A stretch of DNA of 64,000 bases from Eledone cirrhosa (GCA_964016885.1 OZ024743.1:309194001-309258000); one strand, 5' to 3'. Positions 10,842 to 63,680 are shown, counted from the stretch's first letter. Notes: generated by a model from the letters alone, not told the origin. Made by a program: numbers and translations.

Positions 10842-10929
10842 TCCTCGACTACGTAGTTTCGTGGCATAAACAAAAACAATATATCAAAGATATAGAGTCC
10901 TTGCGAGGTCTGCCAACTTATCAAGAGGA
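10842..10929 (-). ncRNA. type I hammerhead ribozyme, U3-A8 variant, long stem II (unit 1)
   Basis: Reverse complement: tcctc TTGATAA g-t-tggca..(insert)..tgccac GAAA ctacgtag TC gagga. Confidence 0.8.
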
Positions 10930-11432
10930 TACCTCATTTTACTAGTCTCAAGAACGCGTCTACACGACGTGAGAAAGAATCCCAAAAGGCGGAGGGGGAG
11001 ATAGTCACGCGATATAACGGTCGAGAAACAGAGCTAAGCCTCTTATAACCACGAAGAAAATACCACGGAGGCGGAGGGGGTATTCATATCGAGGCCGTAG
11101 AAGAGGTAGTGAAGAAGGCGAGAAGTATGAGTAATGGAAGCTTTCCAGTTGTCCCCACACTTCAAAGATTGCTCGACCAGAGGGAGTTATTAATATATTT
11201 AAAAACACACAGATACATGCGGACACACACATATATACATGAATGCATCCGCACCCAACTGTGAGTTAAGGGTGCCAACTTCACCGATGTTGCTCAATGA
11301 ATGACTGGGACAGACCAATTCAGTTTGAACCAGACTGAACCAGTATCAGAGTTAAAAATACATTATGAAGAGAGAAGAAACATTTAGATATAATTAGTAA
11401 TAAAATGTATCATACCTAAACTGTTCCTAAAT

Positions 11433-11520
11433 TCCTCGACTACGTAGTTTCGTGGCATAAACAAAAACAATATATCAAAGATATAGAGTCCTTGCGAGGT
11501 CTGCCAACTTATCAAGAGGA
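11433..11520 (-). ncRNA. type I hammerhead ribozyme (unit 2)
   Basis: Identical to 10842-10929. Confidence 0.8.
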
Positions 11521-12023
11521 TACCTCATTTTACTAGTCTCAAGAACGCGTCTACACGACGTGAGAAAGAATCCCAAAAGGCGGAGGGGGAGATAGTCACG
11601 CGATATAACGGTCGAGAAACAGAGCTAAGCCTCTTATAACCACGAAGAAAATACCACGGAGGCGGAGGGGGTATTCATATCGAGGCCGTAGAAGAGGTAG
11701 TGAAGAAGGCGAGAAGTATGAGTAATGGAAGCTTTCCAGTTGTCCCCACACTTCAAAGATTGCTCGACCAGAGGGAGTTATTAATATATTTAAAAACACA
11801 CAGATACATGCGGACACACACATATATACATGAATGCATCCGCACCCAACTGTGAGTTAAGGGTGCCAACTTCACCGATGTTGCTCAATGAATGACTGGG
11901 ACAGACCAATTCAGTTTGAACCAGACTGAACCAGTATCAGAGTTAAAAATACATTATGAAGAGAGAAGAAACATTTAGATATAATTAGTAATAAAATGTA
12001 TCATACCTAAACTGTTCCTAAAT

Positions 12024-12111
12024 TCCTCGACTACGTAGTTTCGTGGCATAAACAAAAACAATATATCAAAGATATAGAGTCCTTGCGAGGTCTGCCAACT
12101 TATCAAGAGGA
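12024..12111 (-). ncRNA. type I hammerhead ribozyme (unit 3)
   Basis: Identical to 10842-10929. Confidence 0.8.
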
Positions 12112-12787
12112 TACCTCATTTTACTAGTCTCAAGAACGCGTCTACACGACGTGAGAAAGAATCCCAAAATGCGGAGGGGGAGATAGTCACGCGATATAAC
12201 GGTCGAGAAACAGAGCTAAGCCTCTTATAACCACGAAGAAAATACCACGGAGGCGGAGGGGGTATTCATATCGAGGCCGTAGAAGAGGTAGTGAAGAAGG
12301 CGAGAAGTATGAGTAATGGAAGCTTTCCAGTTGTCCCCACACTTCAAAGATTGCTCGACCAGAGGGAGTTATTAATATATTTAAAAACACACAGATACAT
12401 GCGGACACACACATATATACATGAATGCATCCGCACCCAACTGTGAGTTAAGGGTGCCAACTTCACCGATGTTGCTCAATGAATGACTGGGACAGACCAA
12501 TTCAGTTTGAACCAGACTGAACCAGTATCAGAGTTAAAAATACATTATGAAGAGAGAAGAAACATTTAGATATAATTAGTAATAAAATGTATCATACCTA
12601 AACTGTTCCTAAATTCCTCGACTACGTAGTTTCGTGGCATAAACAAAAACAATATATCAAAGATATAGAGTCAAGAGGCTTAGCTCTGTTTCTCGACCAT
12701 TATATCGCGTGACTATCTCCCCCTCCGCCTTTTGGGATTCTTTCTCACGTCGTGTAGACGCGTTCTTGAGACTAGTAAAATGAGGTA

Positions 12788-60330: not shown

Positions 60331-60782
60331 TGAGAAATGACTCTTTCACAACAAATATGTGTGTGTGTGTGTGTGTGTGTGTGTGTGTGTGTGTGTGTGT
60401 GTGTGTGTGTGTGTGTATGTGTGTGTGTGTGTGTGTGTAGTAGTAGTAGTAAGGTGTTCGATGTTGTGATAATGGTTAGCAGCGATGTGTGTCAAATGGC
60501 TATTAAGATAAGTGTGTGTGTGTGTGTGTGTGTGTGTGTGTGTGTGTGTGTGTGTGTGTGTGTGTGTGTGTGTGTGTGTGTGTGTGTGTGTGTGTGTGTG
60601 TGTGTGTGTGTGTGTGTGTATAGCAGAGTAATTCATGGTGGCAGGGATGGTCAGTAAGAATGTGTCTGAAAGCAATGGGGGGAATTTTAGCATGTCAAAA
60701 GATATTTTTCAGCTTTTGTCTTATACGGAGAAGTGCGCGTGTGTGTGTGTGTATATATAAGTCTCTTTGTATGTTGATGTAC

Positions 60783-62003
60783 AAACCCTACAGGCAGAAA
60801 TCTGGGACCGCTATGGGAACGAAAACAGCCCCCACTTATGCCAACCTAGTCATGGGATACCTGGAAATCACCCTCTACACTAAAGTCCTAAACAAATTTG
60901 GAAACACCCTCCACTTACACATTGAAAGGAACTGGAAGCAATATCTAGATGACTGCTTCATCCTTTGGCACGAAAACATCGAAAAACTTAAAGAATTTCA
61001 CACCCTTATAAATGGGCTCAACACAAATATTAACTTCACGATGGAATACAGCCATCAACAACTCCCCTTCCTCGACATCCTCATTAAGATCCATAACAAA
61101 AAAATAGAAACAGACATATACTACAAGCCCACAGACTCCAAGCAATATCTCCCCTTCAACTCTTGCTACCCTAGACACGTTAAAATTAATATTCCCTACA
61201 ACTTAGCCAAGAGAATCTGTACTATAGTCTCCAATAAAAACATCTGCTACTTACGGCTACAAGAACTAAAGGACACACTCATAGGCAGAGACTACCCTGC
61301 ATCACTAATTGACAATGGAATCCAACGTGCCCTAAAACTCAGTACCCAGGACCTTAGACACCCTAAAGTAAATCAACCAAAACTAAAAGCTCTTCCATAC
61401 ATCTCCACACACAACCCCCTGAACAATGAGGCCTTTGACACCATCCTCCAGAACATCCCTGTATTGAAAAAGGACCATAGAATGAACCAAATTCTACGAA
61501 CTCATGATATCATAAAGAGCAAAAGACAATCCAAGTCAATGAAAAACATCTTAACACATGCCAAAGTACTGCCAACCACAACAACGAAACCCACAGTAAA
61601 AAAATGTGATAGACCCAACTGTGGCATTTGCATCAACCTAATAGAGGGTTCGGAATTCTATTTCAAAGATGGACAACGTTTTATAGTAAAACACAATTTC
61701 ACATGTGCATCGGAAAATCTAATATATGTATTAACTTGTTCAGGTTGTCGAGAACAAAACATAGGCCAGACCAAAAACAGCCTTCGCCAACGCATGACTG
61801 TCCATAGATCCCAAATCAAATTACGGGAATACAGGAAAATACCACTGAGTGAACACATTGATACCTGTGCCGCCCAAAATCATCCCAACTTCAGAATCTT
61901 TCCCCTCTACAAATTTAAAGATAATGCCACCCACACCCAGCGCATCAGCAAGGAATCTTACTTCATTAACAAATACGGACCCTGTCTAAACACTTCTCCC
62001 TAA
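60783..62003 (+). CDS. PLE RT C-terminal half + Cys linker + GIY-YIG endonuclease (open frame, 5'-truncated)
   Basis: GTAMGTKTAPTYANL, YLDDCF, PFLDI, YYKPTD, KCDRPNCGIC, NLIYVLTCSGC..NIGQT..LRQRMTVHR, ESYFI..LN; the first ~40 aa of the 60660 ORF come from the inverted pLTR. Confidence 0.9.
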   Translation, partial: KPYRQKSGTAMGTKTAPTYANLVMGYLEITLYTKVLNKFGNTLHLHIERNWKQYLDDCFILWHENIEKLKEFHTLINGLNTNINFTMEYSHQQLPFLDILIKIHNKKIETDIYYKPTDSKQYLPFNSCYPRHVKINIPYNLAKRICTIVSNKNICYLRLQELKDTLIGRDYPASLIDNGIQRALKLSTQDLRHPKVNQPKLKALPYISTHNPLNNEAFDTILQNIPVLKKDHRMNQILRTHDIIKSKRQSKSMKNILTHAKVLPTTTTKPTVKKCDRPNCGICINLIEGSEFYFKDGQRFIVKHNFTCASENLIYVLTCSGCREQNIGQTKNSLRQRMTVHRSQIKLREYRKIPLSEHIDTCAAQNHPNFRIFPLYKFKDNATHTQRISKESYFINKYGPCLNTSP

Positions 62004-62167
62004 GACGAACCCACAACATACACACGTCAACATACATACCTACATCAGCACACATCTCTACCCACATATAAACACAATGACATACGTAAACACACATGCT
62101 CTATGGTGCAACACAAAAAAATATATGTGCATATATGTATGTATATATGTATATATATATATATATA

Positions 62168-62778
62168 TGGTCAGGTCACCACTTGGTGCTACTGGTAACA
62201 TGTATCCCAGTACAACCTGTCTCATGGTCGGGTCGTTGGCGACTAAACTGGCAACCCCACCAAGGTTTCTTGGTGAGGAGGGTGACTTTGGACATCCTGC
62301 AGGACTAAAAACAAAACCTGTCAAAGGGCAAAGGAGCTCTTAAGAGTCAATGGCCATCCAAAATCACTGGGAGAGATGACCCCTTAGCCTTTGTCAAGGC
62401 AGAATTCTAGGAGAAGGAAAACTCTGATATAACACCTGCAACCCTGATGGTATCCAATGATGTTGACTTGTTCTTCTTTTTGGTAAATATCATCTTGGTT
62501 AAGAGAGTGGGATTGGCTTTGTGCAGTGCCTTTGCTCACTATAAAAGCATCACGGCACAGGCATTGCTTTATATCTGGAGATCTCTTTGCACTTGTCGTC
62601 ACATGGTACCAAGGGCAAAGCACTATGTGTCAATAATTGTCACAAGTGTAGTGTTTGTACCAGAGTTTTCAAGTCGCTGGCTGGACTAAAAAGTCACACT
62701 CGTTCAGCGCATCGGTAGGGTTTCTCCTACATGGATATAAAGTAGTGGCCGTACTCGAAAACGAGTTGGCAGCCACCA
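62168..62778 (+). mobile_element. GC-richer insert between (TA)n tracts, probably RTE-LINE 5' UTR-derived
   Basis: ctaggagaaggaaaactctga and aaaacctgtcaaagggc resemble RTE 5' UTRs as I recall them; no ORF. Confidence 0.4.
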
Positions 62779-63643
62779 TATATATATATATATATAGTGA
62801 ATATATGTATGTGTATATATATATAGTGAATATCATTTCACACCTTTTATTGTTAAGATTTTTGATGTTCTATTAAGAGAACCGATTTTACTGAAAAAAT
62901 CGAATAATGTACACCATTTTACCAGGGGGAAAAATACTGGTCCACCCACACACACACACACACACATATATACACACACACATACACACGCGTACATCAA
63001 CATACAAAGAGACATATATATACACACACACACACACACACGCACTTCTCCGTATAAGACAAAAGCTGAAAAATATCTTTTCACATGCTAAAATACCCCC
63101 CATTGCTTTCTGACTGACATTCTTACTGACCATCCCTGCCACGATGAATTACTCTGCTACACACACACACACACACACACACACACACACACACACACAC
63201 ACACACACACACTTATCTTAATAGCCATTTGACACACATCGCTGCTAACCATTATCACAACATCGAACACCTTACTACTACTACTACACACACACACACA
63301 CACACACACACACACACACACACACACACACACACACATTTGTTGTGAAAGAGTCATTTCTCAATCTTGGCGCAAAACCAATTTTTTATTCACATGACCT
63401 CTACCGACCAATCAAAATTGTTTTGACCACAATAATTTTTGCTGGAGCCACTTTTTTAACATAAAAACAGTCTTGGCGCAAAATCAATTTTTTACATTCA
63501 CATGACCTCTACCGACCAATCAAAATTGTTTTGACCACAAGAATTTTTGTAAATTGGAGCCACTTTTTTAACATAAAAACAGGTAGAATTCCCAAAACTA
63601 ATCAGATCAGAGCAAACAGCACTGACACTCTATCTCAAAATTA

Positions 63644-63680
63644 TTTTTGAAAAGCATTTAGAAATGCGCAACCGGTAAAA
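63644..63680 (+). ncRNA. hammerhead-like motif (U3-A8, GCAA) ~125 nt from the pLTR 3' end
   Basis: ttt TTGAAAA gcattt ag aaatgc GCAA ccg GTA aaa. Confidence 0.5.

Follow-up and report, generated by a model that had tools for sequence, protein, structure and literature searches.

The 64,000-nt stretch of Eledone cirrhosa DNA analysed here (GCA_964016885.1 OZ024743.1:309194001-309258000; hereafter the window, to which all counts refer unless stated otherwise) carries a collection of type I hammerhead ribozyme motifs that mostly display the expected three-helix anatomy, lie by the ends of repetitive elements next to (TA)n targets and, in two families, are linked to Penelope-like element (PLE) reverse transcriptase (RT) genes. 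A large share of these motifs possess a U3-A8 pair in the catalytic core in place of the canonical C3-G8. We consider it likely that they represent hammerheads situated near PLE 3' ends, in which U3-A8 was reached through compensated change, probably at least twice. The pairing itself is strict, as a scan blind to the identity of positions 3 and 8 recovered a Watson-Crick 3-8 pair in all 13 structured matches.

Hammerhead motifs and strict pairing of positions 3 and 8

The window (GC 36%) is characterized by abundant (TA)n, (CA)n and (TC)n runs together with short inverted duplications, and by a few broken RT genes. The motifs recovered within it are listed below (coordinates, strand, description).

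U3-A8 motifs
3319..3354, minus: UUGAAAA hammerhead with A13C, core at 3351, same family as 63647
10842..10929, minus: UUGAUAA hammerhead, GUC site, predicted cut after 10847, core at 10924; identical copies at 11433-11520 and 12024-12111
12788..12875, plus: fourth hammerhead of the same array, in its inverted arm, core at 12793
15207..15239, minus: minimal UUGAAAA hammerhead with shortened stem II, core at 15236, inverted twin of 15317
15317..15352, plus: minimal UUGAAAA hammerhead, GUA site, core at 15320, 4-bp stem II, palindromic stem III, GAAA intact
20001..20107, minus: probable decayed UUGAUAA hammerhead, core at 20103, 82-nt arm, mismatched stem III
21346..21386, minus: UUGAUAA hammerhead-like motif, core at 21382, with stems I and III preserved and stem II unpaired
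57289..57382, minus: UUGAUAA hammerhead, core at 57377, stem I of 5 bp, stem III long, stem II arm weak and 54 nt in length
60015..60051, minus: hammerhead with A13C, core at 60048, within the copy of the 60.8-63.8 kb element that lies inverted upstream of it
63644..63680, plus: UUGAAAA hammerhead with A13C, core at 63647, about 160 nt from the element 3' end

C3-G8 motifs
1111..1157, plus: type I hammerhead with U4C (CCGAUGA) and a palindromic stem III, cleavage predicted after 1153
6894..6938, plus: canonical type I hammerhead, Rfam RF00163 match of 37.8 bits
8713..8817, plus: type I hammerhead with U4C (CCGAUGA), 78-nt stem II arm
33055..33125, plus: hammerhead with 8-bp stem I and 36-nt stem II, absent from the initial annotation
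56951..57011, plus: hammerhead with 8-bp stem I and a 20-nt similarity to 33063, absent from the initial annotation

TTGANAA by itself is present 94 times when both strands are counted, and is uninformative without surrounding structure. The counts were made with descriptors of the fold. The full descriptor (type I, three helices, positions 3, 4, 7 and 8 free, GAAA or GCAA allowed, the GCAA option having entered the descriptors only after site 63647 had been inspected) gave 13 matches (8 U3-A8 and 5 C3-G8), in comparison to a mean of 0.35 (maximum 2) in 60 locally shuffled windows, where the 3-8 combinations were widely scattered. A descriptor blind to stem II gave 19 matches (11 U-A, 5 C-G and 3 unpaired, i.e. 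16/19 paired), set against 3.1 overall and 0.18 with a paired 3-8 in 100 shuffles. A third one, fitted to the 20001 site after the fact, returned 11 structured matches versus 0.05 per shuffle. On account of these shuffle counts we regard the paired motifs as real and the unpaired ones as being at chance level. The initial annotation had asked whether unpaired 3-8 combinations are as common as paired ones, and they are not (none of 13 structured matches, and 3/19 at chance level in the looser scan).

The three unpaired matches (3613 U-G, 14202 A-A and 54714 G-A) were discarded as chance, about three matches per shuffle being expected in the stem-II-blind scan, and the same was done with the relaxed-core matches at 17724, 23045, 30961, 34207, 34580, 37597, 43580, 46960, 56495, 58334 and 62944.

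The type I consensus core strands (N3-U4-G5-A6-N7-N8-A9, G12-A13-A14-A15.1 and U16.1-H17) are present in the four array copies, at 15236, 15317, 21347, 57289 and 20001, and at the C3-G8 sites 6900, 33063 and 56959. The three helices around the core are complete at 13 loci, to which 15236 adds a copy with shortened stem II. Perfect palindromic stems III of 6-10 nt characterize 14 of the 16 paired matches of the stem-II-blind scan (the exceptions being 6900, with a 1-nt loop, and 57377, with a long hairpin); these palindromes form no hairpin individually and have predicted self-duplex energies of -3 to -13 kcal/mol. At four loci the stem II arms extend to 54-82 nt. The 45-position model RF00163 is unsuited to long arms or to a dimer-type stem III: at the gathering score Rfam gives a single match in the window (the canonical copy at 6894-6938), it recovers 1/17 of the described hammerhead loci, and no variant copy was found among the best 150 of 234 sub-threshold matches.

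Altogether, U3-A8 (damaged copies included) is found at 12 loci, which fall into no more than five families: two of these are solid, another has a weak stem II, one is broken and one doubtful. The hammerhead families with all cores number about nine, 4-5 of them being U3-A8. The initial annotation placed its motifs exactly at their ends, and its sites at 1115 and 8717 (CCGATGA) both turned out to have full hammerhead anatomy. Its count of at least five unrelated U3-A8 families is better turned around: two of the six sites noted, 15317 and 63644, are one family, therefore five is the maximum, and within it 57289 is weak, 21347 broken and 20001 doubtful.

Families with the U3-A8 core

The sites at 15317 and 63644 are 77% alike over 79 nt (E 4e-11), which places them in one UUGAAAA family. 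Within it, the second core strand reads GCAA (A13C) at 3351, 60048 and 63647, the consensus A13 being replaced at all three; judged by their sequence, these are hammerhead-derived motifs and not members of the consensus. A13C is common to two insertions that are 88% alike (3351 and 60048/63647) and whose stems are still paired. Furthermore, in the alignment of 15320 with the C13 copies one stem I pair changes from C-G to U-A and one stem II pair from G-C to U-A, both sides having changed in each case, an indication that the fold was under selection in the master lineage. The 15317 (A13) and 63644 (C13) motifs thus represent sister subfamilies, and a natural pair for asking whether cutting is needed.

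The most uniform copies belong to a tandem array:

10770..13115, both strands: 591-nt tandem array of 3.2 units on the minus strand with an inverted partial copy, flanked by (TA)n

Its cores (10924, 11515 and 12106 on the minus strand, 12793 on the plus strand) lie in hammerheads with 5 bp in stem I, a stem II arm of 57 nt shaped like a rod (z -3.9 versus shuffles) and a 10-nt palindromic stem III. The units are 99.8-100% alike (one difference among the three full ones), their open reading frames (ORFs) have no Pfam match, and the predicted fold of the 591-nt circular monomer (-173 kcal/mol, versus -134.5 +/- 8.1 in 30 shuffles) is about 4.7 standard deviations lower than expected. The array consists of tandem non-coding units that each hold a complete type I hammerhead, as in retrozymes, and appears to be retrozyme-like and young. 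It resembles the metazoan non-LTR (long terminal repeat) retrozymes (Cervera and De la Pena 2020, PMC7229834; preprint of Li et al. 2026, 10.64898/2026.07.22.740005) in being tandem and non-coding, with GC below 45%, one type I hammerhead per unit, a structured monomer and a Penelope derivation. It differs from those described there in its unit length (591 nt versus 150-450 bp) and its U3-A8 core.

The 591-nt unit is present, partly or mostly, in 20 listed sequencing runs (17 organism labels, 16 studies), none of which is recorded as RNA. Contigs of three of the four runs mapped (run kind not on record) contain the 591-nt back-joint, a joint that a DNA tandem would yield identically. The contig sets from the mapped runs show few differences from the unit and none at core positions, one near-complete set differing at 2/591 positions. 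A raw Hi-C run gave just 5 partial reads on the unit, confined to its microsatellite-like part, and 1.9 Gb of raw reads from a run under one of the 17 labels gave no read on its unique part. The occurrence under 17 labels may reflect close relatives, contamination or transfer.

The remaining U3-A8 loci are of lesser quality. The 57377 motif, situated some 180 nt away from the 3' end of a Hydra-clade element, has a stem II arm whose fold does not surpass that of shuffles (z -1.1). At 20103 stem I requires a G-U pair and the stem II arm again folds no better than shuffles (z +0.2); because the descriptor fitted to it matches 4/100 shuffles, we consider 20001 to be probably a decayed hammerhead copy.

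Families with the C3-G8 core

The two U4C motifs (1115 and 8717) share similarity limited to AT-rich and microsatellite stretches, and each is single-copy in the window. The stem II arm of 8717 has a z of -2.5 versus shuffles, and the motif (8713..8817) belongs to the right arm of an inverted duplication of 310 nt, the left arm of which ends inside the core. A minus-strand motif at 35794 (CUGACGA, 4-bp stem I, palindromic stem III, weak 47-nt stem II), seen in the strict scan only, is a possible further C3-G8 copy. Close to it, 35381-35466 is hammerhead-shaped, combining a 4-bp stem I and a long stem II with a palindromic stem III of 8 nt and a GUC site; CCGUCCA is its first core strand, and it scored 17.5 in a relaxed scan lacking its own shuffle control.

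Penelope-like carriers and their relatives

Each hammerhead is followed by a (TA)n run at a distance of 41-317 nt (625 nt for 21347), and many are contained in inverted duplications of which one arm ends in or near the motif; the same layout ((TA)n, inverted arms and a hammerhead near the end) has been reported for PLEs (Craig et al. 2021, PMC8557442). Three features tie the motifs to coding elements:

58179..58221, plus: 43-nt stretch copying the 3' end of the 57377 element at 97.7%, directly upstream of the Hydra-type ORF
58309..59603, plus: Hydra-clade Penelope-like RT gene with RWR and DKT motifs and one frameshift, cut off by (TA)n
60789..62003, plus: 5'-truncated Penelope-like RT with a CX4CX2C linker and a GIY-YIG-type endonuclease, of Neptune/Nematis type (assigned by motifs and homologs)

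The U3-A8 core is thereby linked to RT genes of two clades, the Hydra type (57377) and the Neptune/Nematis type (63647). The motifs 63647 and 57377 lie in the 3' repeat of elements with Penelope-type RT, and 15317 is connected to them via its similarity to 63647. The Hydra-type gene reads SDKTG and LRWR, in agreement with the DKT and RWK motifs given for this clade (PMC8557442), and this copy ends before the endonuclease; an identity with Naiad was dropped for the ORF at 58.3-59.6 kb, as DKT and RWR are present. The homologs of 60789-62003 carry PF00078 and PF01541, and the gene itself has the CX2-5CxxC linker and CCHH GIY-YIG endonuclease of its type, an assignment that leaves Neptune and Nematis undistinguished. 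The 3' end of this element, with the 63647 motif, is repeated inverted upstream (59890-60356/63338-63805, 98.7%). The two RTs align over just 51 residues, and the closest named relatives of one of them belong to Argonauta (57% identity) and to bivalves. No link to an ORF was found for 8717, 20001, 21347 or the array.

Upstream of its hammerhead, the Neptune/Nematis-type element contains a 107-nt tandem duplication (60113-60332 and 63362-63582) within the 3' untranslated part. Hydra-type endonuclease fragments occur at 557-913 (minus) and 4748-5200 (plus; CxCX5C linker), near the 1115 and 6900 hammerheads, to which no sequence link was obtained.

Relatives of the Neptune/Nematis-type RT were identified at 41 loci in contigs of prokaryote genomes. 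These loci gave 8 hammerhead matches, of which 7 (in 4 loci) are C3-G8, including that of the closest relative (L016, 42% identity). The eighth match (L035) combines U3-A8 with A4 and C13 and corresponds to about the chance rate; a single assembly accounts for 26 of the 41 loci, none of them with a hammerhead match. No relative of the Neptune-type RT was found in viral contigs, and when metagenome contigs were scanned for an 18-nt motif, none of the 15 matches showed similarity beyond it and none had a hammerhead. The presence of animal-type Penelope RTs with hammerheads in prokaryote assemblies (symbiont and metagenome bins; L016, L017, L018, L020, L029, L040 and others, L040 holding four C3-G8 hammerheads in 7 kb) is probably due to host DNA that was binned along.

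Comparison with published hammerheads

The pairing of positions 3 and 8 and the natural occurrence of a compensated U3-A8 pair, active in vitro, are documented (Perreault et al. 2011, PMC3088659), and in an Anolis Penelope-type hammerhead single swaps at position 3 or 8 abolish cutting while C3G/G8C partly restores it (PMC11167929). With the absence of unpaired combinations among our structured matches, this bears out the initial annotation in treating 3-8 as a tertiary pair and C3U with G8A as compensatory. U3-A8 in Penelope hammerheads, with the same cores, is already published: about 1,300 matches were reported from Penelope elements (Cercyon) of Schistosoma mansoni (Cervera and De la Pena 2014, PMC4209133), whose Fig. 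S3 gives UUGAUAA and UUGAAAA as the cores of rows S. mansoni 3 and 4. The window motifs share with these hammerheads the type I topology, short stem I, palindromic stem III, pseudo-LTR location and opposite-strand pairs 100-700 bp apart, in addition to the two cores. They differ in the frequency of U3-A8 (4-5 of about 9 families, versus 2/56 representatives in that figure, where C4 is found in 0/56 and U3-G8 in 1/56, a Saccoglossus element), in their longer stem III palindromes (6-10 nt), in the 54-82 nt stem II arms at four loci, and in C4 and A13C.

The covariation from C3-G8 to U3-A8 and the U4C change, which lowers activity yet is tolerated in a viroid, are the same as in PMC3088659, the window cases being in animal retroelements; A13C is absent from the variants named in the relevant section of that source. 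Hydra-clade PLEs (PMC8557442) resemble the window element in having DKT and RWK-like motifs, in targeting (TA)n, and in their short tail, inverted copy with 5' truncation and hammerhead near the 3' end, but their hammerheads are C3-G8 with a short stem II, in contrast to the U3-A8 core, 54-nt arm and long stem III seen here. In the supplement of that study a hammerhead is listed for 25/27 Hydra families (26 rows), all C3-G8; they were found with a canonical descriptor, yet only two families are without an entry. A literature search on hammerheads and retrozymes in cephalopods gave PMC8557442 as the sole relevant source among the matches listed, and no rate of cleavage for U3-A8 versus C3-G8 was found in the literature covered. 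The slower cleavage suggested in the initial annotation is thus unsupported.

Probable repeated origin of the U3-A8 core

As genomic copies take over the core of the master element, evidence has to be counted by family (about 9) and not by copy. By family, 4 are U-A and 4-5 C-G, with no mixed state (Fisher p 0.03-0.008, assuming independence). The presence of U3-A8 on both clades is best read as the outcome of at least two origins, or of one origin with transfer of the 3' module. That U3-A8 occurs in two distinct element clades makes a repeated origin, and with it the repeated covariation proposed in the initial annotation, plausible, and it is favoured because the known relatives of both clades are mostly C3-G8. 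In our preferred reading, the motifs are carried near the 3' end (pseudo-LTR) of PLEs and their non-coding derivatives, and the element RNA would be cut after the H17 base, mostly in dimers joined through the pairing of two palindromic stem III strands, and perhaps with the assistance of the element's protein. The replacement would have taken place in four or five families via two common transitions (probably through a U3-G8 wobble), with only re-paired cores being passed on by master elements, and probably happened at least twice. U4C would be a tolerated, weaker variant, and genomic copies would be inherited passively and then decay (20001 and 21347).

Several observations weigh against this reading. 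The Fisher probabilities overstate the case, because the families are kin by descent. Moreover, the clade labels (Hydra; Neptune/Nematis) derive from motifs and not from a tree. Three of the twelve U3-A8 loci (57377, 21382 and 20103) have a weak or broken stem. Changes at A13 are strongly damaging, and A13C is carried by another three of the twelve. Finally, in an in vitro Penelope test (PMC11167929) dead hammerheads brought no drop in insertion, and no reads ended at the cut site; since insertion was left unreduced, selection for cutting during transposition is not established.

The alternative that we regard as unlikely, while still deserving of serious attention, is a single ancient switch, in which one U3-A8 3' module spread by recombination or template switching and no repeated covariation took place. 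It would account for the UUGAUAA core common to four of the five U3-A8 families and for the 54-82 nt stem II arms in three of them, and small motifs lose recognisable similarity fast. It has to contend with stems I-III that are wholly different between these families, with the lack of similarity at E 0.05 (except for 15320/63647 and one 19-nt flank match between 57377 and 63647), and with RT genes of two deep clades that are alignable over so few residues. We find it improbable that the fold is kept for a role other than cutting (RT binding or dimer RNA pairing), the U3-A8 motifs or at least the A13C subfamily being inactive. Such a role would fit the A13C shared by two insertions whose stems are still paired, the in vitro insertion by catalytic mutants and the dependence of the Anolis ribozyme on the element's protein (PMC11167929), and the weak cleavage in vitro, as dimers, of metazoan Penelope minimal hammerheads (PMC4209133). 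Against it, the 3-8 pair matters for the active fold, and selection on cutting is the simplest explanation of its strict pairing in all these families; G5, A6, A9, G12, A14 and the UH site are also kept, an argument that is partly circular as the descriptor fixed them.

Neutral AT-biased decay, by which C3U and G8A would be ordinary transitions in dead copies, is very improbable. Both changes do go from GC to AT in a GC-poor window, but single changes should then far outnumber double ones, and there are none among the structured matches; the youngest copies (the array units) all carry the double change, and U4C runs in the opposite direction. Furthermore, the U-A sites are locally richer in GC (0.31-0.42, six sites) than the C-G sites (0.26-0.34, five sites), and AT-richness as the driver of the replacement, as had been suggested in the initial annotation, finds no local support. 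Chance pattern matches in AT-rich repeat DNA, for which one could invoke the frequency of TTGANAA and the weakness of 20001, are barely credible as a general explanation in view of the excess of structured matches over the shuffles under both descriptors and of their positions at element ends, and chance is refuted for every site except 20001.

Taken together, the natural U3-A8 and C4 cores described here add examples to the publications of 2011 and 2014, and touch upon the question of what hammerheads do for PLEs. The large proportion of U3-A8 families stands out, as do the long stem II arms, through which motifs escape standard searches, and the sister subfamilies with A13 and C13; searches based on CUGANGA, as well as Rfam, would miss most of the hammerheads in this genome. 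A bolder proposal, which we put forward as doubtful, is that U3-A8 may be a second standard core in this genome, reached separately by the Hydra and Neptune/Nematis types, making up about half of the families, often with very long stem II arms that elude standard searches, and with one C13 sub-lineage that kept compensated stems and went on spreading. If this were true, U3-A8-C13 would represent either an undescribed active core or a natural proof that Penelope elements keep the fold without cutting.

Truncations and other repeats in the window

Among the insertions and inverted arms we observed 5' truncations that fall inside the hammerhead (core or stem II arm) and not at the cut site at 2607-2807, 8559-8870, 12672/12673, 13789-13964, 14135-14252 and 32943-33168, perhaps as a consequence of RT stalling at the structure. 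Two broken RT genes, not of Penelope type and resembling long interspersed nuclear elements, are found at 17350-19797 (RVT_1 on opposite strands, 17.4-18.3 and 19.1-19.8 kb) and at 45105-47387 (RVT_1 and zf-RVT). Two further families are abundant short interspersed repeats without a coding match, one at 23335-23518, 26651-26875, 34435-34628, 40806-41030, 44091-44367, 48976-49134, 50287-50526 and 53004-53217, and the other at 9638-9981, 27373-27692, 41831-42175 and 52378-52736.

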